Counted from the first letter of the stretch, positions 17,950 to 47,599 are shown. The stretch: 64,000 bases of DNA from Chloroflexota bacterium (GCA_014584575.1 JACTMP010000063.1:1-64000), one strand, 5' to 3'. A program made the numbers and translations. The notes: generated by a model not told the origin, from the sequence alone.

Positions 17950-19056
17950 TTAACTGCTTATCAGAAAGGATTCTAAAGGTACAGTTTTCATAGCTTCAGC
18001 CAGATACAAGTGAATGTCGCTGCGAGGCATTGTTACTAATGGATGCACGAATCCCATTCGTTGATGAAGAATTTGGGCTACTTCTTGTGGCCAATAAGCC
18101 AGACTCATTTGTACAATATCGCCTTCAACACGACGTGCTAACTCTTTGATGCGACTCCCCGCACCAATGCGGTCTACAATAATAATCGTTGCCAGATACC
18201 AGGTAGAACGGCCCAGGCTAATTTCCCGCTCAAACCGGGTTACTTTATCTAAAGAAATCTCTGGATTCCCCCGCCCAATGAAGCCAATATCGAATCTCAC
18301 TCCTTTGCCTGCTTCCCACAGAGCAGTTGCATCACTTTCACGCCGATCCTCTTGCGAAGACAGCCAAAATTCGCGCTGAAAACTAACGGCTCCACTCGTG
18401 CCCGTATGCTGAAAACCAAGAACGGTAAGCAGTGAACCCAATACTAACCGTTCAAACAATTTTCCATAAAGAGATTTTTCTGATCCGCGAATAGCCAGTG
18501 TTTGTGCTCCCACCGCGCCCAACAAGTACAACATAAAAGCCCACCCCAAATCGGCCACGAATTCATTGTTCAGGAAAATTTTTGTCTGTAACGGCCCATA
18601 ATTATCAATGCTCTGAGTTATTACTTCCCGGTAAACAGCCTCATAACGCAAGCGATATTCAGTCAGCAGTTCGGCATCATCACGCAATACATTTTGTGAG
18701 GCTTTGTCGGTCAAACCCAATACCCATTGAGCCATCCACTTTTCTGAACGAGACAAACGCTTCTGCCGTAAAATCCTTTCGGCAATTTCAGGTAATTTTT
18801 CCACAAAATCAGGTTGAGAAGCAGCACCACGTACCATCATGGCAACAGTGGCAGCATTGAGGGCAGCCAGACGACGGCGCGTCAGCATTTCCGTGGAATC
18901 ACGCAAATTTCGACCAGAAAGCACATCAAGGACAACTGCTCGTACCGTCTCCATCCCTATCTTTTGGATCAAGTCGTTACCACTGGCATTTAACAATGCT
19001 TTGGCATTGTCATCTAGCAAGTCAAGGAAGCTGGTGAGAGGTTCGTGTTCAACCAT
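17950..19056 (-). CDS. candidate Type II restriction endonuclease (uncharacterised family) in a low-GC island
   Basis: 368 aa ORF, 10 bp downstream of and co-directional with the MTase. Local GC is visibly lower than the surroundings and the ACGGCCGT octamer is absent. No motif I can name. Confidence 0.35.
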   Translation of the reverse strand: MVEHEPLTSFLDLLDDNAKALLNASGNDLIQKIGMETVRAVVLDVLSGRNLRDSTEMLTRRRLAALNAATVAMMVRGAASQPDFVEKLPEIAERILRQKRLSRSEKWMAQWVLGLTDKASQNVLRDDAELLTEYRLRYEAVYREVITQSIDNYGPLQTKIFLNNEFVADLGWAFMLYLLGAVGAQTLAIRGSEKSLYGKLFERLVLGSLLTVLGFQHTGTSGAVSFQREFWLSSQEDRRESDATALWEAGKGVRFDIGFIGRGNPEISLDKVTRFEREISLGRSTWYLATIIIVDRIGAGSRIKELARRVEGDIVQMSLAYWPQEVAQILHQRMGFVHPLVTMPRSDIHLYLAEAMKTVPLESFLISS

Positions 19057-19065
19057 GAATCACAC

Positions 19066-20283
19066 CTAGAGCAGCATATTATCCACAGAGATGGGAGGAC
19101 AGTTCACACATAAAATATCGGCGGCTTCTTTGCCCAGCCATAATTTGGCCCGTTCGCGCATCAGGTTAATGTATTTTGGCTCCTGGTCAATCAAAACGAA
19201 ACGCCGTTTGGCTTTGGCGGCGGCCAGACCCACTGTGCCTGAACCGGCAAAGGGGTCTAGTATTACATCATCTACAAAGGAGTAATAAGCAATGACTTTG
19301 GCCGCTAACTCTTCCGGGAAGATGGCCGGATGTTCTTTGTCAAAAGTGGGCGAGATTTGCCAGATGTTGGTGACTTCATAACCATCTTCTATTTTTGATG
19401 CCTGCACCAATTCCTGGTTGGGATGGGTGCGGATATTCCAATCAATTAGGTGGGGCGACTGTTTGCGATAAACCAGGATGTATTCGGTGACGGGTACGGG
19501 TTTGTATTGCAGGGGGTTACGGTCAGCGGCAAAACGTCGCCCACGTCCGGTTGCCCAACCCGCGCCTTCCGGTTTGGCCCAGATGATGTCGTCAATAAAA
19601 TCATACCCTTCCTCCACAAACAGCCGGTGCATGTCAAAGGGCACGGCAATGCGCCGGGAGGATTGAGTGCGATTGGCCCGGCGAATCAGCACCGGCGAGA
19701 TGTTCATCACAAAAAAGCGCCCCTCGTTTAACACGCGATGGCTGGCGCGGATGATTTTGCGCATTTTCAGCAGATATTCTTCATAGGTCAGGTAATCTTC
19801 GTATTCGGGCCGGGCATTGAAGTAGGGAGGAGAAGTGAAAATCAGGTCTATAGAGGCCTCCGGCAGTTCGGCCAGGATTTCTTCCGCATCGCCCAGAGCA
19901 ATGGTGTTACGCAAGTTGGAGGGTTTGTAGCTCTTTGGGTGAATAGGTGGGGCTGGTTTGGCGCTTTTGCGATGCAGTAGCCGGGCTTCCAGCAGCTCGG
20001 GGGTCGTCGTCTTGTCCTGCAACAGAAGGGAGGTGTAAGCATCAATAACAATTTCGCCGATACGCTCCTGCGAATGTTTGCTGACCAGGGGAACACGCCA
20101 GACGTGATAACGGTCATCAATCTCCGGCAGGCCAAAAGCGACAGCCCCATCCAGGTCTATGCTTTCCAGCCAGGTAGCCGCTACCTGACGCGCCCCCTCA
20201 ACATTGAGGACACGATACTTCCGTTTTTCGGCCACCGTGTCTTTGAGTTCAGCAGTTTCTGGATCCTGATTCTCATATTCCAT
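19066..20283 (-). CDS. DNA methyltransferase, N4-cytosine/N6-adenine (beta class, SPPY)
   Basis: Motif IV (TSPPYFN) lies N-terminal to motif I (DPFAGSGT), the beta-class order. ParB-like methylase fold; ~100 aa N-terminal extension. Confidence 0.8.
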   Translation of the reverse strand: MEYENQDPETAELKDTVAEKRKYRVLNVEGARQVAATWLESIDLDGAVAFGLPEIDDRYHVWRVPLVSKHSQERIGEIVIDAYTSLLLQDKTTTPELLEARLLHRKSAKPAPPIHPKSYKPSNLRNTIALGDAEEILAELPEASIDLIFTSPPYFNARPEYEDYLTYEEYLLKMRKIIRASHRVLNEGRFFVMNISPVLIRRANRTQSSRRIAVPFDMHRLFVEEGYDFIDDIIWAKPEGAGWATGRGRRFAADRNPLQYKPVPVTEYILVYRKQSPHLIDWNIRTHPNQELVQASKIEDGYEVTNIWQISPTFDKEHPAIFPEELAAKVIAYYSFVDDVILDPFAGSGTVGLAAAKAKRRFVLIDQEPKYINLMRERAKLWLGKEAADILCVNCPPISVDNMLL

Positions 20284-38600: not shown

Positions 38601-39451
38601 GCTACAACGGCAGCCAGGTGAGTTGGAACATTCCCACCCTGCCCGGATACGCCTTCGCCTCGGAGGTTATCGCTGTGGTGACGGCTAACGAGACGATCAG
38701 CAACAGTGTCTACAGCGTGACGGCGGCCGGGGGGTATAGTGCGGTGGGGCAGGAAACGGCCGTGACCCGCATCGTAGACGCCCAGGTAAGGCTGACACCG
38801 CTGTTGACCCGCACACTGCATTACGCGGGCAGCCAAAGTACAGAGATGACCGTGCCTTATGGTTCCGTCTTTGCCGAGACCATGCTGACCTACGACGAGT
38901 TGATGACGCCGCCATATCCGGTTCCATCCGGTTATGCCGGACGTGCCTTCCGCCTGAGTGGGTATCAGGATAACCAGATGATGCCCGACCTGGTGTTGGC
39001 GGAAACGGCCGTGATCACCCTCACCTATTCCCAGACGGCCGTCGCCGGGCTGGATGAAAACCTGCTGACGGTGCATTACTGGGACGGGAATGGCTGGGCA
39101 AGAAATGGGGTGACGTGTGAACGGGATGTGCAGGCCAATTGGGTAAGCTGCCACGTGCCGCGCCCGCCGATGACGGCCTATGCGCTGCTGGAAGGGCGCT
39201 CCACCATCTACCTGCCCTTTATCACCAATGGCCTGACGGCTGAACCCACCCTTTCGGCCACCATCACCGGCATCTCATTGGTGGGCAACCAGTATCATGC
39301 CAACTTCGCAGCGGCCCCTGGTATGTGTATGGTGGCGGCAGCCCCTTTACCGGGTACGGGGTGGCCGACCGGCCCCCGGCGGCCACGCAGCTCTGTGTCC
39401 TGGTGGCGAACCATGATCACAGCATCATTCTGGGCAGCGGCAACTGTATGA
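35636..39451 (+). CDS. S8 family serine peptidase (subtilase) with PPC domain and long C-terminal extension; 3' end frameshifted relative to its downstream duplicate
   Basis: Signal peptide. Catalytic D (VLDTGLNRTHPDL), H (HGTHVAGIVAG) and S (GTSMAAPHVAGALAV). PPC-like segment (DYTDVYYFNGTANQRLRI...GTYQIQV). The last ~48 codons are in a different frame from the intact copy at 41533-41929 because of a 49 nt deletion. Confidence 0.8.
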   Translation: MKTKLLLVVFVPLLVLVVIAPWRHTAVSANIAPNPKPPLDETLLDMAQTLGTVPVIIGVHVPGFAPEAADEAAQVAAIRQAQTAVLDTLAGHNIHNVKQFPYIPYMALWVDEAGLLTLQADPTVTTIYEDRLYAPATSDSTPIIRSDSANSIGYGGQGRTVAVLDTGLNRTHPDLNGKVVSEACYSTFDPLALATSLCPNGNNSQTGTGSSNPPPNYVTGYDHGTHVAGIVAGVAPQATLIGIQVFSRFTDIAGSPPGPFTPCANGGRPSPCTLSYSSDQILGLQRVYALRNSYSIAAVNMSLGGGSYASNCDSLNAALTTTILSLRTAGITTVISAGNNSYRGSIGAPACISYAVSVGGTTSTPGPATPDQVGSYSNAASIMTLWAPGGWIHAAVPTWATSCGPGVSPTNNRCYKQGTSMAAPHVAGALAVMRSAVPGATVNQLISALTSTGPSITDQRSGGFVTKRRLDVYAATCQLAGCDQDDFRTLTLNQSLNGSLGVGNDYTDVYYFNGTANQRLRISMNRLSGTLDPYLVFVDPNGNLVAVNNDGGAGTNALIDPVILPVNGRYTIYALRANSGSGTYQIQVSQGTFGANPVPTLLSMNRTSATVNSPAGFWVGLTGNNFSSNSVVRWNGQNRPTSYYSSTFIWGWVNASDTNVLGNYSITVYTPTPGGGTSFAQNFQITSDPLGVSEMLAPLPDSSVPVGVQQTFAISWTHPISSWRVMQNIDIRLKDVTDQTAFWIRFTEGSPTSTIGLLNNSGEHIASSPLVSGQYGQPGDIEVPDMVTMHMANTIFFGSGRTVIISPTVTFGSLAPGRYMVEFTVNNDEGEVQDADVVGAFYVLPPGCDTALTGVQVNGPDTGTVNSNYQFTAVITPTALADVTYVWSPEPVSGQGTAVATFNWSQAGMWPVNVVAHHCSGFLADVATMGIRTTVAPDLEISKTAPATAVAGDPITYTLTITNRGGTDATGLSITDTLPPGATYVSGGSYNGSQVSWNIPTLPGYAFASEVIAVVTANETISNSVYSVTAAGGYSAVGQETAVTRIVDAQVRLTPLLTRTLHYAGSQSTEMTVPYGSVFAETMLTYDELMTPPYPVPSGYAGRAFRLSGYQDNQMMPDLVLAETAVITLTYSQTAVAGLDENLLTVHYWDGNGWARNGVTCERDVQANWVSCHVPRPPMTAYALLEGRSTIYLPFITNGLTAEPTLSATITGISLVGNQYHANFAAAPGMCMVAAAPLPGTGWPTGPRRPRSSVSWWRTMITASFWAAATV

Positions 39452-39515: not shown

Positions 39516-41264
39516 TTGGAGGTAACTATGAAAAACCGGGAATTTTTCCTTTTGTTCAGCGCATTATTGGCGCTAAGTTTTGTCTTGTTTAACATTTTTG
39601 TTACCCACGCCGTTGCCGGTGTTTCCGGTGGTGGTGGGCAGTGGGTGGTGGATCGTCTGGATGACCCGACGCTGCCCGGCGGCTCAGCCTGCACGGAAGC
39701 GCCTGATGATTGCAGCCTGCGTGGGGCACTCAGCGTCTATAATTCGGGCGACCAGATCACCTTCGCCATCACGGGCACCATCACCCTGACCAACGGCGAG
39801 ATACTCATTGCCAATGGCGACGTGACCATCCAGGGGCCAGGCGCGGCCGACCTCATCATCAGCGGCGGTGAGACCAGCCGGATTTTCACCCTCGATCCCA
39901 GCCAGAATGTGACCATTACCGGCGTGACGCTGCGTGATGGGTTTGCCAGCCAGGGGGGCGCAATCTTCAACAATCTCAGCACGCTGACGCTGGCCGATTG
40001 TGTGCTGACGGAAAACACGGCCAGTGACTATGGCGGCGCGATTCAAAACAATGCTGCCACCATTTTCCAACGACCCGCCGGCGCACCCACCTGGGGCGGG
40101 GCGGACGCCCATTTGCTGATTGACAACTGTGTATTGAGCAACAACGCGGCCAGCGGTATAGAGAAAGAAGAGCAGTCTCACGGCGGCCCGACAGGAGTTG
40201 GCGGGGCCATTTACAATACGGCCGTAGGGCCGGGGGCAACGGCCGTTGTCACCATCACCCACAGCACCCTCATCGGCAATACGGCCGATGATGACTTTTA
40301 TGCCGGCGGTGCCATCACCAACTTTGGCTCCGCATTTACCATTCCGGGTAATACCCACGCCGCTGTCTATATCGCCGACAGCACCATCGCCAACAACAGC
40401 GCGCCGAATGGCGATGGCGGCGCTATCGCCAGCTATGCGCTGGATGCCGGTGCATCAACCGCCGTTACCATTCAGAACAGCACCGTCAGCGACAACTCGT
40501 CGGGCAGTGATTTTGGCGGCGGCGGCGGCATTTTCAGCTTTGCCTATAATCGTGATGAGGAGGGGTTGACAGAGGCGACCGTGAACCTGACCGGCAGCAC
40601 CTTTGCCAGTAATGCGGCCACAATGGACAGGGGTGGCGCTCTATTTAATGGCGCACTTGATAGCGGGTCAACGGCCGTCACCCATATCCTCAACAGCACT
40701 TTCAGCGGTAATACAGCGGCCGGCGTGGGCGGCGCTATCGCCAATGATGCCTACAACCGGGATGCGTTGGGCCTGACAAACGCCGCTCTCCACATCACCC
40801 ATGCCAGCTTTGTGGGCAATGATGCGGCTTCCGGCGGGGCCATCGCCAATGTGCCGGTCAGCGAGAACGGAACGTTGGCCGAAGTCCACCTGAAAAACGC
40901 TCTGCTGCACACCAGCAGCGGCGGCGACTGCCAGAACAGCGGCACCATTGATGGTGCCAACAACCTGATTGACGACGACACCTGCGGCACTGATGCCAGC
41001 TTCCGCCTGGGTGCGCCCACGCTGGTTTCGCCGACGCTGGCGGACAATGGTGGCCCCACCCTGACACACGCCTTGCTGGCAGGCACCAATGCCGAAGATG
41101 CCGTGCCGGACGGTGATTGTACGGTAGTCAACACCAGCACCGTCGTTATGGCGGATCAACGCGGTGTGGCCCGGCCTGTGGGCGCAACCTGTGATGTGGG
41201 CGCGGTGGAAGGGGTGATGGTGTCCTTTTCGTTTGGCATTTACCTGCCGGTGATTATCAAGTAG
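39516..41264 (+). CDS. CSLREA-domain / choice-of-anchor-Q-like secreted protein with Pmp (GGAI) beta-helix repeats and C-terminal IYLPVIIK tail
   Basis: Signal peptide. DDCSLRGAL (CSLREA-type) motif. Seven or more GGAI/GGAL repeats. C-terminal DQRGVARPVGATCDVGAVE motif. Ends FGIYLPVIIK. Confidence 0.6.
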   Translation: MEVTMKNREFFLLFSALLALSFVLFNIFVTHAVAGVSGGGGQWVVDRLDDPTLPGGSACTEAPDDCSLRGALSVYNSGDQITFAITGTITLTNGEILIANGDVTIQGPGAADLIISGGETSRIFTLDPSQNVTITGVTLRDGFASQGGAIFNNLSTLTLADCVLTENTASDYGGAIQNNAATIFQRPAGAPTWGGADAHLLIDNCVLSNNAASGIEKEEQSHGGPTGVGGAIYNTAVGPGATAVVTITHSTLIGNTADDDFYAGGAITNFGSAFTIPGNTHAAVYIADSTIANNSAPNGDGGAIASYALDAGASTAVTIQNSTVSDNSSGSDFGGGGGIFSFAYNRDEEGLTEATVNLTGSTFASNAATMDRGGALFNGALDSGSTAVTHILNSTFSGNTAAGVGGAIANDAYNRDALGLTNAALHITHASFVGNDAASGGAIANVPVSENGTLAEVHLKNALLHTSSGGDCQNSGTIDGANNLIDDDTCGTDASFRLGAPTLVSPTLADNGGPTLTHALLAGTNAEDAVPDGDCTVVNTSTVVMADQRGVARPVGATCDVGAVEGVMVSFSFGIYLPVIIK

Positions 41265-41376: not shown

Positions 41377-41538
41377 ATGACCGACAGTCCACAGCAGCTA
41401 CCCCTTACCTTCTCCTCCCACCATAACCAATCCCTCTTTTCTGACCATTACCTGGACGAAATTTTGCGCCGCAGCGAGAGCTGGCGGCAAGCCATCCCGC
41501 AGGCGCAGGCGTTTCTGGCCTGGCTGCGTGATCTGTGA
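41377..41538 (+). pseudogene. 53-codon stub with good RBS resembling the N-terminus of large RM-type (Type IIG/Eco57I-like) proteins, truncated at the duplication junction
   Basis: AGGAG RBS 7 nt upstream of the ATG. MTDSPQQLPLTFSSHHNQSLFSDHYLDEILRRSESWRQ... The LFSxHYL N-terminus I associate (from memory) with RM enzyme N-termini. The reading frame ends exactly where homology to 39117.. begins. Confidence 0.35.
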
Positions 41539-41929
41539 ACGGGATGTGCAGGCGAATTGGGTAAGCTGCCAGGTGCCGCGCCCGCCGATGACGGCCTATG
41601 CGCTGCTGGAAGGGCGTTCCACCCTTTACCTGCCCTTTATCACCAATGGCCTGACGGCTGAACCCACCCTTTCGGCCACCATCACCGGCATCTCATTGGT
41701 GGGCAACCAGTATCATGCCAACTTCGTTCACTTCTTCTTCAACACCGTGCCGCCAGAGCAGGTCGGTGTGCCTGGCAGCGGCCCCTGGTATGTGTATGGT
41801 GGCGGCAGCCCCTTTACCGGGTACGGGGTGGCCGACCGGCCGCAGGCGGCCACGCAGCTCTGTGTTCTGGTGGCAAACCATGATCACAGCGTCATTCTGG
41901 GCAGCGGCAACTGTATGAATTTGCCGTAG
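41533..41929 (+). pseudogene. detached duplicate of the subtilase 3' end (intact ancestral frame), with its own terminator
   Basis: About 90% identical to 39117-39462 but containing 49 extra nt (encoding VHFFFNTVPPEQVGVPG) that restore a clean frame to NCMNLP*. No plausible independent N-terminus or signal peptide. Confidence 0.45.
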
Positions 41930-41970: not shown

Positions 41971-42090
41971 TTAGTTGATGTGTTTGCCGGTGGCGGTACG
42001 GCCGTAGGGGAAAAAGCGCAGGTTGCAACCTGCGCTTTTTTATTTGCAAAGGTTTTTTGGACGTGTTGAATTTCTGCTACAATCGAAACT

Positions 42091-43344
42091 GTGGATGCCC
42101 AGATAAACAATCGTAACCAGATCATCGCCCAACCATTCAGTAAACAAACGCTTGGGGCAACGCTGAAAGCCGCCTTGAGCGGCCAAATCGCACCTTTTCA
42201 CACGTTTCGCGCGGCCGTTGCCTTTGTAAAACGCTCTGGTGTCCAGCACATTCAGACGGAATTACAGCAATTTGTGCAAAGAGGAGGTCTGGCGCGAGTT
42301 ATCGTGGGGATTGATCAGCTTGGGTCTAGTCGTGAAGGATTGGCCGGTTTGCTAAACGCGGTAGGAGAGTCTGGTTCTGTCTGGGTTAATCGAACGACTG
42401 AAACGTATGTGACTTTTCACCCCAAAGTGTATTTGTTTGCGGCTGATGATGTGGCTTTGCTGATCGTTGGCTCTGGCAATTTGACGGAGGGCGGCCTGTA
42501 CACCAATGATGAAGCTTCGCTGATGTATTGGCTGGCGTTGCAGGAACCAGAGGATCAGGCGCTTTGGCAGGAAATCAACGCCTATTTGGACCAGTGGGGT
42601 GATGCGGCTAATGGCAATGCGATACAACTAACGGCCGATTTGCTCAATGAATTAGTTGAGGCAGGGCTGGTTCCGACAGAGGAGAAAATTGAGCGAGAAG
42701 GGGATGAGGCAACGGCCGTTTCCCCCACACCATCCCCTCAACCGGCAACACAACTGGCGCATGTGTTCTTCAAGAAATCGGCCGTTAAACGCACTGCGCC
42801 ACGTTCCAAAACCAGTGTGCCAAAACCGAAAAAGCCCACTTTACCGCCCGAAGAAGAGGTCTCGCAACCGGTTGAGTTGGCTATGGAAGCGCCCATTGGC
42901 TTTGTTATGATTTTGCAGCGCACAGATGTCGGCACGGGGCAGACAACGACAGGAACCAGTCGCCGTTCGCCAGAAATCTTCATCCCGTTAGCTGCCAGAG
43001 ATGTTTTTCCTGAGTTTTGGGGTTGGCCGACGTTGTTTGTCGAAGACGCAGCGCGACCCGGCAAGTATGATCGTCAGGCGGTCAAGATGCGGATTGGCGG
43101 GGATTTGGTCATGGTTAATATGATGACCTGGCCGGTCAAGCACGATTTCCGGTTGCGTAGCGAAGCGTTACGCAGCGCAGGGGCCATTGGCGATATTTTG
43201 CGCCTGGAAAAGCCAACAGAAGGAACTCCCTTTGCGTATTACGTGGAGATCATCCCGCAGGGAACCAGCGATTACGAGAGTTATCTGGCTTTGTGCGTAA
43301 ACCAGGTGCGAAATTCTGCGAAGCGGTGGGGGTATTACCGTTAG
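42091..43344 (+). CDS. PLD-family (NgoFVII/BfiI-like) restriction endonuclease candidate with C-terminal B3/EcoRII-N-like DNA-binding domain
   Basis: N-terminal ~150 aa carry a single HxK-type motif (TFHPKVYLFAADD) typical of PLD nucleases. The C-terminal ~170 aa (ILQRTDVGTGQTTTG...EIFIPLAARDVFPEFWG) resemble B3-like DNA-recognition domains. Adjacent to two MTases. The stop overlaps the MTase stop region. Confidence 0.5.
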   Translation: MDAQINNRNQIIAQPFSKQTLGATLKAALSGQIAPFHTFRAAVAFVKRSGVQHIQTELQQFVQRGGLARVIVGIDQLGSSREGLAGLLNAVGESGSVWVNRTTETYVTFHPKVYLFAADDVALLIVGSGNLTEGGLYTNDEASLMYWLALQEPEDQALWQEINAYLDQWGDAANGNAIQLTADLLNELVEAGLVPTEEKIEREGDEATAVSPTPSPQPATQLAHVFFKKSAVKRTAPRSKTSVPKPKKPTLPPEEEVSQPVELAMEAPIGFVMILQRTDVGTGQTTTGTSRRSPEIFIPLAARDVFPEFWGWPTLFVEDAARPGKYDRQAVKMRIGGDLVMVNMMTWPVKHDFRLRSEALRSAGAIGDILRLEKPTEGTPFAYYVEIIPQGTSDYESYLALCVNQVRNSAKRWGYYR

Positions 43345-44954
43345 TTGTTGCGGAAGCAAAGGATGGTTTCGGCGCTGCTGGCATTTTTCTTGAAAATATC
43401 ACGCGATACCAGCATTTCCATCGGGATTTGCTCGACCAGATGCAGGCCAGCCGCTTCCCCCAATTCGCCCAATAGCTGATCCGTTTCGATGTCTACGCGC
43501 TCGCCTCCGGCGATGGTGTGATTGTTACCGACCACGACAAAAGCGGGCGCGCCGGGACGCAGCAGACGCGGGAATGTTTCTAGCACCTGACGCATGTCGA
43601 AGAAATAACGGGCTAACAGAGCGGGCAGATTTTGTCGCCGAAAGCCCACATTGGCGTCCTGGTTCAGGTGGTGAATGCGGTCAATAACGGCCGTTATCCC
43701 CCCCGTCAATCTCCCCCGATTTTGTTCATACTCCGCCCAATACGCCTGACGACGGCCGTTGCTAATCTCCCGGTTGCCGATCATCTGGTAATCGCGTGAC
43801 CGATGCCCCGGGCGCGAGAGCAAACCCAAAAAGTAGAGGCTCAAACGGTCTGTATCCAGATAGGGCAGAGCAGTAGCGTAAGGCGGCGAAGTGATAATGG
43901 CATCAATCTGTGCTGTGCGCGCCGCCAGTAATCTATCCGCTTGTTGGGCATTTCCTTCACGAATATCGGCCGCACCAATAGCCTGACCCTGGTTTTCGTA
44001 CAAAAAGGCCAGAATTATCTTTACAGAGCGATTGAGTTCCGTCAAAAACTCAGAAATTGTGTCAGGAATTTCATCAGAAACGTCCCGGCGCACGCGCAAG
44101 TCGTCATCTTTCTGCCAGGAGACACGGCGCAAAATGTTACTCAGGCTGACCATAAACAAGCGGCGGCAAGCAAGATTTGGTATTTGCTGAATACGGATCA
44201 TGATCCGATCCAGCGCGGTTAACACTTCGGGGGCAAACCAATTTGAGAGATACGTGCGGTCTGGCTCGCTGAGAGTGTTTAACCAGGCGAATGAGTGTTC
44301 TGGCGCAGCGGGTTCGGTCAGTAAATCCGTATTCACCGCTGCAAACTGTTCGGCCAATTGCGCTGGCGGCACGGCCAAAATATCGCATTTGGTCTGGCTG
44401 ACAAGCACCGAGAGGGGGTTCATGTCCAGCCCATAAGCCTGACAACCAAGCAGGACAGCTTCAACGGCCGTTGTCCCACTTCCCGACATGGGATCCAGCA
44501 CCTTCGCTCCTGGTTTGATTTCAGCGATGTTGAGTAGAGAACGAACCAATTGAGGGAAGAATTTGCCGCGATATTCGTGGATGCCATGTGGCCCATAGCG
44601 CAGGTTCCGCCGGTTGGGAATGGGCACATGACCGTTAAAGGGAAGCATCGTTTGAAGCTGAACGGCCGTAACCCCATTTCGTGCTAGTGTGGTAGTGGCT
44701 TCGCGGCGCACCTGTTGGGTGAGTTGGAGGGAGGGAACGGCCGTTTCTCCACCCACTCCCTCCCAATAAGCCAGATGCCCGACCAAATCCGCCGGTTCTA
44801 CCGATGATTCAACCCAATAATCGCCCGTCTCCTCATGCGCCAGATTGAGGCAGGCGACAGGTTCATGTCCGGTCAGGGCAGCCAACTCCCTAAGCGCCAA
44901 CGTTTTCTCAAACGGTTGAATGTACGGTTTCAGGCGACAAATCACTTTGCCCAC
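43341..44954 (-). CDS. DNA methyltransferase (alpha class; motif I then SPPY), candidate m4C/m6A
   Basis: Motif I (LDPMSGSGTT) is N-terminal to motif IV (IITSPPYATA). Length 537 aa. Confidence 0.75.
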   Translation of the reverse strand: MGKVICRLKPYIQPFEKTLALRELAALTGHEPVACLNLAHEETGDYWVESSVEPADLVGHLAYWEGVGGETAVPSLQLTQQVRREATTTLARNGVTAVQLQTMLPFNGHVPIPNRRNLRYGPHGIHEYRGKFFPQLVRSLLNIAEIKPGAKVLDPMSGSGTTAVEAVLLGCQAYGLDMNPLSVLVSQTKCDILAVPPAQLAEQFAAVNTDLLTEPAAPEHSFAWLNTLSEPDRTYLSNWFAPEVLTALDRIMIRIQQIPNLACRRLFMVSLSNILRRVSWQKDDDLRVRRDVSDEIPDTISEFLTELNRSVKIILAFLYENQGQAIGAADIREGNAQQADRLLAARTAQIDAIITSPPYATALPYLDTDRLSLYFLGLLSRPGHRSRDYQMIGNREISNGRRQAYWAEYEQNRGRLTGGITAVIDRIHHLNQDANVGFRRQNLPALLARYFFDMRQVLETFPRLLRPGAPAFVVVGNNHTIAGGERVDIETDQLLGELGEAAGLHLVEQIPMEMLVSRDIFKKNASSAETILCFRNN

Positions 44955-46411
44955 TATCGCCCCCTCTGACGCGCTCTGTTACGCAGAATGACAATGTGTT
45001 CATCCTTAATTTTGCCAATTGCCGGGTTGAATGATTTTTTGCTGGCCTGCAAATGGCGCGTCAAATTTGCCGCAGCCTCATAACCGGCTGCCTCCGCTAC
45101 TTCGATCAAAAGTTGATCGTTTTGGATGCGTTGCCCTTTGATTGTCGAATCGCCAATCACAAAACAGGCGTAACGATTTGGCTTCAGCGTATGGGAAAGC
45201 CAGGAGAGAATGGTGAACAATTCGCCGCGAAAGGTATCGGCTGTTGCCCCATTGCTCCCCTTGTGGCTGTATTTGCGATGGCTGCCAATCTCTTCCTGTT
45301 TAAATTTTGGCTGGTCCATATCCAACCATAACATGCGGGTCCGGTGATAAAGGTGATAACTGTAAGCATTGGGATAAGGTGGTGAACAGACAACCAGATC
45401 AACCGGTTCGACGTCTGGCGGTTCTAATATGTTCGCCTGGTGGATGGTAGCGGTGAAACGGCCGTCTACCTCTTCACCAAATTCCACCACCCGCTGTACG
45501 GCCTGCGCCAACGTGCGGCCGAAAAGTTGCAGTGTGTCCCCCGGTTTAATGTTCTTCTGGCGGCGCACATAGCGCGTATCTGAATCCTGCCGCGACACGG
45601 CAACGATAATGGCCGAAAATGCAGTTAGCGCCAATTGCCTTGCTTTCTCTGACCCAAGTGATAGGCATTTTGTCTTGATAAATGACAGTTCTTCGATCAC
45701 CGGCTGGTCAAACCATTCTTCTACACCTTCAAATGCTGGCATCGGGGCAGACTGAGGAAATGGGGATAATTCAGGGAACAAAGGTAAGGTTCCCATAAAA
45801 GTCTGTTGGGCAAAATAACTAATTTCCTCAACCAACCCCCTCAGGCAGCCCACCTCTGCTTCGTCCAATAAAGTCGTTTTGGCCCGGCTGATCAGGCAAG
45901 CCAATGGGTTTGCGTCTATGCCGATAGCGTGGCATTCCAGGCGCAACGCTTCGACTAAAGTCGTGCCACTGCCACAAAACGGATCCAGCACTGTATCGCC
46001 GATTGATGCCAATTCTCGAATAAGTGCCTTCGGAATTTGGGGGATGTATTTCGCCGGGTAAGGGTGGATGGCGTGGGTCAGGTAGCCGGTGTTTGCGTTG
46101 ATAAAATCCCAATCTATCTTTTCCAAACGAGGGATTGCTCCGATGGGCGCTTCATAAACCACCGCGCTTTCTTTGAGGATTGGCGCGGCCGTACCATTGA
46201 CTTGTCGGGCAAATTCCACAATTGTTTGCGCTTCTTCATGGGTGAACAATCGCCAGTCATTCCGATCTCGTCCCGGTTCGGAGATGCGTCCCTCGCGCAG
46301 CCAGCGCAACAGCGTATCGCGGTGAATGCCCGCCATTTGGGAGACTTGCTTGGTGGAATAAGTTGCACCGCTCATAGCGGCATTGTAACGCATACCTGCA
46401 ACTATATGCAA
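44954..46411 (-). CDS. DNA methyltransferase (motif I then SPPY) with N-terminal MerR/excisionase-like HTH
   Basis: HTH (YSTKQVSQMAGIHRDTLLRWLREGRI). Motif I (LDPFCGSGTT). Motif IV (VVCSPPYPNAY). Shares an ATG/stop overlap with the upstream MTase. Confidence 0.75.
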   Translation of the reverse strand: MHIVAGMRYNAAMSGATYSTKQVSQMAGIHRDTLLRWLREGRISEPGRDRNDWRLFTHEEAQTIVEFARQVNGTAAPILKESAVVYEAPIGAIPRLEKIDWDFINANTGYLTHAIHPYPAKYIPQIPKALIRELASIGDTVLDPFCGSGTTLVEALRLECHAIGIDANPLACLISRAKTTLLDEAEVGCLRGLVEEISYFAQQTFMGTLPLFPELSPFPQSAPMPAFEGVEEWFDQPVIEELSFIKTKCLSLGSEKARQLALTAFSAIIVAVSRQDSDTRYVRRQKNIKPGDTLQLFGRTLAQAVQRVVEFGEEVDGRFTATIHQANILEPPDVEPVDLVVCSPPYPNAYSYHLYHRTRMLWLDMDQPKFKQEEIGSHRKYSHKGSNGATADTFRGELFTILSWLSHTLKPNRYACFVIGDSTIKGQRIQNDQLLIEVAEAAGYEAAANLTRHLQASKKSFNPAIGKIKDEHIVILRNRARQRGR

Positions 46412-46440
46412 CTATAGTTTCCCATGGCGTTATTTGGCCC

Positions 46441-46499
46441 AACGGCCGTTCCCCCCTCCCAATGTTGCACGTGTGGGTGGTGGGGTGGGTACGGCCGTT
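46441..46499. repeat. 58 nt element (direct repeat, left copy) flanking the vapBC module
   Basis: AACGGCCGTTCCCCCCTCCCAATGTTGCACGTGTGGGTGGTGGGGTGGGTACGGCCGTT. Confidence 0.7.
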
Positions 46500-46531
46500 C
46501 AACGGTCAATGGATTGGCAAGATGGGTAACT

Positions 46532-46943
46532 TAAAGCGTAGAAAGCCAGTTTTCTAGCTGTAGCTGAGGGATGGGCTGGAAATCTTTGTCGGTGGTCAAC
46601 AATATCAAATCGTGGCGCAAGGCGATGGCGGCAACGAGCGCATCTACGGTTTCCAGTTGTCGGCCCCGCGACTGCGAAGGGCTATTTGCAATTGGGCAGC
46701 AAACTCGGCGTCTGTTTCATCCGGTATGTAACAAGTCAGCAAAGGCTTAAGGCGTTCCCACTCGGCCAGGTTTTGTTTGGCGCGAGGCAGCAGGGCAATG
46801 CCAAATAATGTTTCAGTGATGCCGGGTACACAAATGGCAAAGTTATCCCCATCATCAAGCCTTTGCAGAATACGCTCACGCAGAGGGTGGCTGATAGTGA
46901 TCAACGGGGAGGCGTGGTTGGTATCCAGCAGGTAATTTGCCAT
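46532..46943 (-). pseudogene. vapC: PIN-domain toxin vapC, disrupted by a single frameshift in a CGCGGGGCC run
   Basis: N-terminal part MANYLLDTNHAS...ALRSRG (46644..46943) stops after ADNWKP. The -1 frame continues RQLETVDALVAAIALRHDLILLTTDKDFQPIPQLQLENWL to a stop at 46532. Together they form a complete VapC. Confidence 0.6.
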
Positions 46944-47010
46944 GTCAGGCGTACCCTTCGGCGGCAGCGTTGGCGCGGGAGATGGCCTCCATCTCCGCTT
47001 CTACAACAGT

Positions 47011-47289
47011 TCAGGACTGGTTCCAGGTTGCCAGATCAAAATCAGGGTCTTCTGGGGCACGGCGTAATGCCTCGGCTAAAGAACCGCTAGCCAGACGTAA
47101 ACTACCAGGATTGACCGGGGTAGCCTGTATTCTGGCAACTACTTCTTCGGGCGAGGGGAATGCCGTTTCTGTTTCCAGAGCATCATGCAACAGTTCAACG
47201 ATCAACTGCTCTAGAGGCACACGTTCCATTTGTGCTTTACGCTGAAGTTTGCGTTCCATTTCGTGGGGCATACTAATGATTACAGTCAT
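47011..47289 (-). CDS. vapB: VapB-type antitoxin
   Basis: 92 aa, upstream of vapC on the same strand. The tail DPDFDLATWNQ is typical of PIN-binding antitoxin tails. N-terminal region is RHH/SpoVT-like. Confidence 0.5.
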   Translation of the reverse strand: MTVIISMPHEMERKLQRKAQMERVPLEQLIVELLHDALETETAFPSPEEVVARIQATPVNPGSLRLASGSLAEALRRAPEDPDFDLATWNQS

Positions 47290-47391
47290 GCTGCACCTCC
47301 GTCACTCAGTCCGCCTTTTGTCCGATCCTTGCTAACTTTTGCAAGTATAGTCTGGTTCGTGATGTTATTCAATCATGCTAATGGATGGCAA

Positions 47392-47449
47392 AACGGCCGT
47401 CCCCCCCTCCCAAATTTCCGCGTGTGGGTGGTGGGGCGGAACGGCCGTT
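47392..47449. repeat. 58 nt element (direct repeat, right copy) flanking the vapBC module
   Basis: AACGGCCGTCCCCCCCTCCCAAATTTCCGCGTGTGGGTGGTGGGGCGGAACGGCCGTT (~85% identical to the copy at 46441). Confidence 0.7.
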
Positions 47450-47599
47450 TTCTCCGGTTAGTTCAACATGAATTATGCATTACGCTGGTCGAACCACCGC
47501 CCAGGGCTTGATATTCAGCGCCGCAAGCAGTATATCATAATCCGCAGGCAACCGGCTGCCGCTAGAACCATCCAGGCGCAGGCTGCCAGGCAGTCAGAT

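Follow-up and report, generated by a model that had tools for sequence, protein, structure and literature searches.

A 64,000-nucleotide stretch of DNA from a Chloroflexota bacterium (GCA_014584575.1 JACTMP010000063.1:1-64000), hereafter the window, carries a three-gene cassette that very probably constitutes a Type IIS-like restriction-modification (R-M) system of the BfiI architectural class. The cassette combines a BfiI-like restriction endonuclease, R (42091-43344, plus strand, GTG start, 417 amino acids), with two methyltransferases encoded on the minus strand, M1 (43341-44954, GTG start, 537 amino acids) and M2 (44954-46375, probable ATG start at 46375, 473 amino acids). M2, assigned from Pfam and PADLOC matches and the N-termini of its orthologues, additionally bears an N-terminal helix-turn-helix (HTH) of the MerR type. 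An earlier note, made from the sequence of the window, had outlined these three open reading frames (ORFs), and all of them were found where it placed them, although its start for M2 had to be moved. The longest M2 frame (44954-46411, minus strand, 485 amino acids) opens with TTG 46411, which we do not take as the real start because it falls inside the operator repeats described below; orthologue N-termini line up with ATG 46375 (MSGATYSTKQV...). The TAG stop of M2 overlaps the GTG start of M1 (TAGTG), GAGGGGG precedes the M1 start, and M2-M1 is one translationally coupled operon. R and M1 are convergent and their stop codons overlap (TTAG), leaving no room for a terminator between them. BfiI-type Type IIS R-M systems are known as a kind, but we found no characterisation of this sequence family, of the specificity it has, of the Trm11-like methyltransferases or of the control circuit formed by the HTH and direct repeats. 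On balance we favour the view that the cassette belongs to a large family of Type IIS enzymes, so far uncharacterised, that work independently of metal, recognise a new site and are controlled by a new circuit of HTH and direct repeats.

The nuclease assignment is carried by the N-terminal domain of R (residues 1-195; 42091-42675, plus strand), which profile matches, predicted fold and invariant residues identify as a phospholipase D (PLD) nuclease domain with a single HxK motif. This motif lies within TFHPKVYLF (residues 108-116) and supplies H110-P-K112 (42418-42426, plus strand), which are joined in the catalytic set by N130 (42478-42480) and E141 (42511-42513) on the same strand. Across an alignment of 34 diverse R homologues sharing 46-84% identity (A1), H110, K112, N130 and E141 are invariant in 34/34 sequences. 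A phmmer alignment places these residues, with identical spacing, on BfiI H105, K107, N125 and E136, the active-site residues of that enzyme (PMC4267654). The earlier note had read FHPKVYLF as the single HxK motif of a BfiI-type nuclease, which these data bear out, and had asked whether the protein might instead lack nuclease residues and be a cardiolipin-synthase-like fragment; the catalytic tetrad is present. A cardiolipin-synthase or phospholipase identity is ruled out by the single HKD motif, the nuclease-type PLD fold, the DNA-binding C-terminal domain and the R-M context.

The resemblance to BfiI extends over both domains of the protein. When R was compared with PDB sequences using phmmer, the PLD domain of SauUSI was matched, as was BfiI in two collinear stretches, one in the PLD domain (R residues 49-145) and one joining R residues 351-416 to BfiI 281-345. 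The profile built from A1 recovered SauUSI (E = 1.8e-8), BfiI through both domains (1e-5) and the NgoAVII R-protein (4rct, 1.3e-4), and also matched the isolated BfiI-C domain. An AlphaFold2 model of R has a mean predicted local distance difference test score (pLDDT) of 79; most of both domains scores above 90, and residues 204-265 are disordered and score below 50. The top Foldseek match to this model was BfiI (2c1l_A, E = 5.8e-18 over 411 columns); the NgoAVII R-protein (1.9e-6) and the nucleases Nuc, NucT and Zucchini were also matched.

The C-terminal domain (42895-43344, plus strand), delimited by Foldseek, hidden Markov model (HMM) alignment and conservation, is a B3-like domain of the BfiI-C/EcoRII-N type. 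Foldseek matched it to BfiI-C with DNA (3zi5_A, E = 2.3e-8, template-modelling (TM) score 0.67) and to EcoRII-N (3hqf, E = 2.6e-4), so that the resemblance to these recognition modules, also claimed in the earlier note, is upheld by both profile and fold. The domain is nearly invariant across phyla in A1. Its invariant residues D352 and R354 fall on BfiI D282 and R284 in the HMM alignment to BfiI 281-345, which are C-arm residues that read TGG within the recognition sites of BfiI and EcoRII (PMC3973309). Since the recognition residues beside this D-x-R differ from those of BfiI, the aligned sequences suggest that the site of R is likely related to, but different from, that of BfiI.

The two domains are joined by an interdomain linker (approximately residues 196-268; 42676-42894, plus strand), defined by pLDDT and conservation, in which a short acidic stretch is followed by about 65 disordered residues rich in Lys, Arg and Pro. 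Within the linker, the motif F-x-K-x-x-x-K-R-x-A-P-R is conserved across phyla, with F227 invariant in A1, and it is kept even in a relative, P0349, whose C-terminal domain is different. Possible roles for this motif include a DNA contact, an active-site plug or a dimer contact.

Several observations weigh against a straightforward BfiI assignment. R scores below the Pfam gathering threshold for BfiI_DBD (PF18243, 12.9 against 25 bits), RE_NgoFVII (PF09565, 13.9 against 23.8 bits) and PLDc_2 (20.3 against 27 bits), and only about 18% of its residues are identical to those of BfiI, so that we do not assign R to the BfiI sequence family. By the profile and fold comparisons above, the resemblance of both domains lies well beyond chance. 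The PLDc_2 and RE_NgoFVII thresholds are cleared by some of the relatives that share the PLD domain of R. The linkers of BfiI and NgoAVII are short and acidic and are thought to be DNA mimics (PMC4267654), whereas that of R is three times longer and mostly basic rather than acidic, and the autoinhibition and cleavage geometry of BfiI may therefore not carry over. Finally, a search for avoidance of a recognition site among 5-, 6- and 7-mers in 1.04 Mb of pooled carrier loci, relative to maximal-order Markov expectations, yielded no asymmetric outlier, with only the usual palindromes depleted.

We then considered how the cassette is distributed, using the neighbourhoods of three homologues together with 80 genome loci found with A1 and screened by tblastn. 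The order R-> <-M1 <-M2 occurs with identical orientation in approximately 80 of 86 loci, the exceptions being contig ends or decayed copies, and M1 and M2 are never split from each other. Stop-codon overlaps of -4, -7 or -10 nt between R and M1 were found in 58/80 loci. The genes flanking the cassette are unrelated between loci, and its hosts belong to more than ten phyla, among them Chloroflexota, Cyanobacteria, Nitrospirota, Planctomycetota, Acidobacteriota, Gemmatimonadota, Latescibacterota and Verrucomicrobiota as well as Alpha-, Beta- and Gammaproteobacteria. Cultured carriers include Methylobacterium sp. R2-1 (L045), Cupriavidus phytorum MLR2-44 (L080), Oscillatoriales cyanobacterium USR001 (L025) and Okeania sp. 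SIO2B3 (L015). The family is large, with at least 601 clusters (50% identity) at E <= 1e-30 in an hmmsearch of 1.84 billion representatives and more than 1000 R homologues in a word-indexed search. Public names of these homologues are 'hypothetical', 'phospholipase D family protein' or 'HKD family nuclease', with no restriction-system label; given these labels and defence-system profiles that barely detect R, such cassettes have probably been scored as orphan methyltransferases.

The genomic context also bears on whether R might be the recognition-nuclease subunit of an ATP-dependent system of the NgoAVII/CglI type, requiring a separate helicase-like ATPase (N or H). These R-proteins (GCCGC, ATP-dependent) share the PLD, linker and B3-like architecture of R, which by analogy would also have a dimeric PLD core; the NgoAVII R-protein is matched by both sequence profile and fold, and the PLD domain of close R relatives clears the RE_NgoFVII threshold. 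NgoAVII/CglI systems, however, need the N or H subunit and ATP, and no ATPase or helicase gene lies beside the cassette in the window or in the approximately 80 loci, whose flanks are unrelated. The fold match to BfiI is moreover stronger than that to NgoAVII (E = 5.8e-18 against 1.9e-6). NgoAVII/CglI systems use one 5-methylcytosine (m5C) methyltransferase, a set differing from the two amino-methyltransferases of the cassette. Chiefly because no ATPase gene is linked, we regard an ATP-dependent system as very improbable indeed. Assignments to DISARM, Zorya or Pbe, suggested by weak PADLOC and NCBIfam matches to the PLD domain, were dropped as their partner genes are absent: DrmC models matched R only weakly (E = 0.003-0.04), and none of the DISARM partner genes (the DrmA helicase, DrmB DUF1998 or other core genes) was found in the window or in the three homologue neighbourhoods.

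The Type IIS-like interpretation predicts a pair of methyltransferases, and M1 and M2 have the expected signatures. In M1, an N-terminal alpha/beta domain (residues 1-105, delimited from the model) is followed by motif I, DPMSGSGTT (residues 154-162; 44469-44495, minus strand), and motif IV, SPPY (residues 356-359; 43878-43889, minus strand). In M2, motif I is DPFCGSGTT (45959-45985, minus strand) and motif IV is again SPPY (residues 343-346; 45374-45385, minus strand). Pfam identifies N6_N4_Mtase in M2 (1.2e-16) and both UPF0020 and N6_N4_Mtase in M1, and the REBASE-derived Type II methyltransferase models of PADLOC match both proteins over their full length at approximately 1e-65 (M2, MTase_II, 1.7e-65). 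With 31% identity over 269 amino acids from motif I to SPPY, M1 and M2 are, on their sequences, paralogues.

Less certain is the base that they modify. SPPY was found, as the earlier note had said, in all three methyltransferases of the window (M1, M2 and the ORF at 19066-20283); TSPPYA is invariant among M1 homologues, and M2 has CSPPY. An SPP(Y/F) motif is the classical hallmark of N4-methylcytosine (m4C) (PMC3425538), and m4C is accordingly the product suggested by the sequences. Against this stands M.CbeI, which makes m4C with a DPPY motif, so that the modified base cannot be predicted with full confidence from SPPY (PMC3425538). The name 'cytosine-N4-specific' given to the family by the Joint Genome Institute (JGI) is based on homology and KEGG Orthology, and PDB sequence searches with M1 and M2 matched only the approximately 50-residue motif X/I region, which is uninformative on class or base.

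The structural model of M1 (pLDDT 88, predicted TM score 0.90) has a Rossmann core with two helical inserts, one between strands 2 and 3 (residues 180-320) and one after strand 4 (residues 365-465), which from the model are likely target-recognition modules. Because motif I precedes motif IV, neither enzyme is of the beta class. The 'alpha-class' label previously given to them holds in the loose sense of this motif order but does not extend to the fold, as the nearest folds are Trm11/UPF0020-like, with Trm11 itself the best match and no Dam-type alpha enzyme among the top matches.

This resemblance raises the possibility that the cassette is not a classical R-M system at all, and that Trm11-like enzymes modify RNA (guanine-N2 in tRNA or rRNA) or place some other DNA mark while the PLD protein acts as a toxin-like or modification-dependent nuclease that they restrain. 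Compared with the tRNA guanine-N2 methyltransferases Trm11, Trm14 and TrmN, however, M1 has no THUMP signature, and neither THUMP nor any other Pfam domain was found in the N-terminal 105 residues among 32 homologues. M1 also has two large helical inserts, absent from Trm11, at the positions of target-recognition domains. Genomic context and the full-length Type II profile matches (1e-65), together with the N6_N4_Mtase signature, indicate a DNA substrate. In addition, M2 carries a DNA-binding HTH that has a putative operator of its own, and both enzymes are obligate partners of a nuclease that has a domain for sequence-specific DNA binding. We consider a function outside R-M very unlikely. A related idea, for which we see hardly any likelihood, is that M1 and M2 install a DNA mark other than m4C or N6-methyladenine (m6A), such as N2-methylguanine; it is conceivable since the structures nearest to both are tRNA guanine-N2 methyltransferases, with no solved DNA methyltransferase of comparable closeness. 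If true, such a mark would be new among R-M modifications and would be missed by routine methylome calling.

Under the preferred Type IIS-like interpretation, two methyltransferases would be required because each protects one strand of an asymmetric site, as the earlier note proposed. In its favour, M1 and M2 are paralogous and always linked, and in Oscillatoriales cyanobacteria M2 (without its HTH) and M1 are fused as one ORF in the order M2-M1, encoding 929-961 amino acids (L015 7179-9968 and L025 7209-10094; proteins P0165, P0202 and P0227). The P0349 relative, too, has two methyltransferases beside it, of classes other than those of M1 and M2. The pair thus fits one methyltransferase per strand, with the asymmetry of the site itself presumed from these features. 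M.FokI, a fused double methyltransferase of a Type IIS system, provides a precedent in which each half modifies one strand. The cyanobacterial fusions resemble M.FokI in this respect, whereas their fold differs (Trm11/UPF0020-like, with SPPY), and in the window and most other loci M1 and M2 are separate but translationally coupled.

We next turned to regulation. The HTH of M2 (residues 18-64; 46220-46360, minus strand) clears the Pfam gathering scores of both MerR (29.0 against 28.2 bits) and MerR_1 (25.0 against 21.6 bits), and leads straight into the methyltransferase without the C-terminal coiled-coil dimerisation and effector domain of MerR-type proteins. Such an HTH is fused to M2 in 63/78 complete loci and absent in 15. 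Upstream of M2 in the window lie two exact tandem 10-bp repeats, TATAGTTGCA (46397-46416, minus strand), the only exact copies in the window, which form a putative operator at or over the -10 of the M2-M1 promoter. HTH-bearing loci in general have two, sometimes three, head-to-tail repeats of 10-bp period starting with TATA directly upstream of M2, a direct repeat unlike the palindrome in a long-spacer promoter that is bound by the MerR family. A pattern with an 11-bp period matched nothing, the true period being 10 bp. TATA-N6-TATA was found upstream of M2 in 55/63 HTH-bearing loci but in 0/15 HTH-less loci (Fisher p = 1e-10, for loci that are not phylogenetically independent, which tempers the test), and occurred only once elsewhere in 2.19 Mb searched on both strands. 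In several loci the first repeat is the -10 hexamer itself, 16-17 nt after TTGACA (TTGACA-N16/17-TATAnT in L001, L002, L009 and L010), while in others the repeats sit just downstream of a separate -10.

Variants of the cassette support a regulatory role for the HTH and repeats. In one locus (L036 9960-12950), an IS21-like element comprising a 529-amino-acid transposase and a helper gene splits the M2 HTH from the methyltransferase core, and the detached HTH still has the 10-bp repeats upstream of it; in an HTH-less locus (L070), a ribbon-helix-helix (RHH) gene lies directly upstream of M2; and the P0349 system, with its swapped DNA-binding domain, has a separate 105-amino-acid HTH_3 gene. The suggestion that the fused HTH serves as an autoregulator in place of a separate C protein thus gains strong comparative support, with repeats only where the HTH is present and a separate HTH_3 gene in the P0349 system, and sequence comparison indicates that M2 probably represses its own promoter through the HTH and repeats. 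No locus has an operator repeat ahead of the R gene, and the data thus give no support for the HTH controlling R directly. R instead has a candidate -10 box, TGCTACAAT (42079-42084, plus strand), 6-7 nt before its GTG and conserved in the closest relative found (L007, described below), where TGCTACAAT precedes an ATG start of R; this short distance suggests a leaderless or near-leaderless R mRNA.

Taken together, these features would allow the following sequence of events. In a newly entered cell, the M2-M1 promoter would at first be unrepressed and would fire, and read-through from the convergent M2-M1 operon, antisense to R, combined with the poor GTG/leaderless start, would keep R low. M2 and M1 would each protect one strand of the asymmetric site, probably as m4C. 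Accumulated M2 would then bind its TATAGTTGCA repeats head to tail on one face of the DNA through its MerR-type winged HTH. For the steps that follow M2 binding, we infer by analogy and from the gene geometry that bound M2 would shut the M2-M1 promoter at its -10 and that R, from its own promoter, would rise. R would dimerise through its PLD domains to create one metal-independent active site, each B3 domain would bind an asymmetric site, and cleavage would occur nearby. BfiI is described as cutting the two strands one after the other at one active site, by way of a phospho-histidine intermediate and independently of metal (PMC4081073); the single active site of R would likewise cut the strands in turn, via a phospho-histidine intermediate at H110 and without metal.

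Comparison with characterised systems shows what is shared and what departs from them. BfiI/BmrI is a Type IIS enzyme of Bacillus firmus (ACTGGG 5/4) and reportedly has two m4C methyltransferases, one per strand. The cassette resembles it in the single-HxK PLD domain with the H/K/N/E tetrad, the B3-like pseudobarrel, the D-x-R of the C-arm, the lack of an ATPase partner and the two amino-methyltransferases. R is longer than BfiI (417 against 358 amino acids) because its linker is a disordered basic segment of approximately 65 residues, where BfiI has a short acidic linker. Unlike those of BfiI, the cassette methyltransferases are Trm11-like with helical inserts, one of them has an HTH and its own operator, and the gene order is fixed and convergent with overlapping stop codons. 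Methyltransferases of the SsoII/EcoRII/MspI type autoregulate through an N-terminal HTH. Both this mode of control and that by C proteins (C.PvuII, PMC2175313) likewise place an HTH at the methyltransferase promoter in negative feedback. The known autoregulators, however, are m5C methyltransferases with a divergent R gene, or separate Xre-type C proteins acting on inverted C-boxes, whereas the cassette has a MerR/excisionase-type winged HTH on an amino-methyltransferase, two or three direct 10-bp repeats, and a convergent R without an operator.

The P0349 system extends the comparison within the family. P0349 shares 43% identity with R through residue 252, covering the PLD domain and basic linker, followed by an unrelated C-terminal domain. 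On metagenome contigs (L087 4800-9198 and L088), its gene lies between a beta N6_N4 methyltransferase and the HTH_3 gene, with an Eco57I-type gamma methyltransferase beyond, and a BsuBI/PstI-type R-M system adjoins. This locus is a modular swap of the recognition domain, methyltransferase pair and controller. The family therewith offers a natural series in which the same PLD-linker module is found with swapped recognition domains and methyltransferase pairs, separate or fused methyltransferases, and an HTH that is fused, separate or absent, suited to studying the co-evolution of specificity and control. The HTH with its 10-bp direct-repeat pair is a clean and testable regulatory circuit. Characterised metal-independent PLD restriction enzymes are very few, namely BfiI/BmrI and the ATP-dependent NgoAVII/CglI group, and characterisation of R would be expected to add a new Type IIS specificity, predicted to work in ethylenediaminetetraacetic acid (EDTA).

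The closest relative of the cassette allowed us to ask whether it is intact and how it is embedded. The nearest genome is that of Anaerolineae bacterium ACE_CHL11 (L007), with 94-98% protein identity (R, 94%). A 5.5-kb island (41979-47450) containing R, M1, M2 and a VapBC-like pair is 95.4% identical to L007 5892-11407, and the rest of the 13-kb L007 locus has no match in the window. As only 41979-47450 is common to both, the surroundings of the R-M and VapBC-like island differ between two close relatives. The island has a G+C content of 0.51-0.55, against 0.59-0.62 in the flanks.

These data bear on a further reading, that the cassette is decaying or domesticated, with orphan or epigenetic methyltransferases and an inactive R. 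The neighbouring VapC-like gene is seemingly frameshifted, the R gene has a GTG start and possibly a leaderless transcript, and degenerate remnants of the family exist elsewhere, as in the chromosome of Nitrobacter sp. TKz-YC01 (complete genome), where an R homologue truncated to residues 8-352 (L071 6001-7032) has no M1 or M2 nearby and is apparently the remnant of a decayed cassette. In the window, however, R is full length and retains all residues that are invariant in the family. It shares 94% identity with its L007 orthologue, and the sister genome likewise has intact copies of R, M1 and M2. The operator, the translational coupling and the stop-codon overlap are preserved. With invariant residues and control elements intact, decay is an unlikely explanation, and we retain the interpretation of a complete Type IIS-like R-M system.

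The window contains a second R-M system, consisting of the beta-class SPPY N6_N4 methyltransferase at 19066-20283 (minus strand, PF01555, 1.2e-42) and an adjoining CfrBI-type restriction endonuclease at 17950-19056 (minus strand, PF09516, 9e-15).

A palindromic octamer, ACGGCCGT, is iterated throughout the window. It occurs 140 times in 64 kb, compared with 1.5 expected and a maximum of 5 in 100 shuffles, which corresponds to approximately one per 450 bp, and accounts for 140/194 CGGCCG hexamers. Copies lie both within and between genes (e.g., at 1767, 41998, 46442 and 62806). The octamer resembles the cyanobacterial HIP1 but occurs here in an Anaerolineae-like genome; 26 copies are present in the 13 kb of the sister metagenome-assembled genome L007, and the remaining Chloroflexota loci that were examined have none. 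Each of the 12 island copies is kept in both the window and L007 despite 5% divergence, where about 4 losses would be expected (P ~0.007). A literature search found no report of ACGGCCGT iteration. An 11-nt repeat flanking the cassette, GGTACGGCCGT, was considered as a target-site duplication and ruled out: because ACGGCCGT occurs 140 times in the window, the flanking GGTACGGCCGT repeats are copies of this genome-wide iterated palindrome. Two ACGGCCGT copies joined by C-rich and G-rich arms also make up a hairpin-forming element of about 60 bp found at 46441-46500 and 47390-47449; its copies flank the VapBC-like pair, and the one on the right falls at the right-hand border of the island common to L007 and the window.

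Within the VapBC-like pair, the VapC/PIN-like ORF (MANYLLDTNHASPLI..., 46531-46943, minus strand) stops after 99 amino acids and reading resumes in another frame to approximately 46531, a pattern suggesting either a frameshift in the toxin gene or an error in sequencing. A 92-amino-acid antitoxin-like ORF (47011-47289, minus strand) lies upstream of it, and a Pfam search with both ORFs gave no match at E <= 0.001. To the left of the island, the C-terminal ~65 residues of a 1277-amino-acid secreted protease-like ORF (...CERDVQANWVSC...GISLVGNQYHANF) are duplicated at the start of an ORF at 41528-41929. The two copies of this protease tail (39200-39451 and 41528-41730) bracket a 582-amino-acid ORF (39516-41264), and the duplication resembles the scar of a rearrangement, situated immediately to the left of the island.

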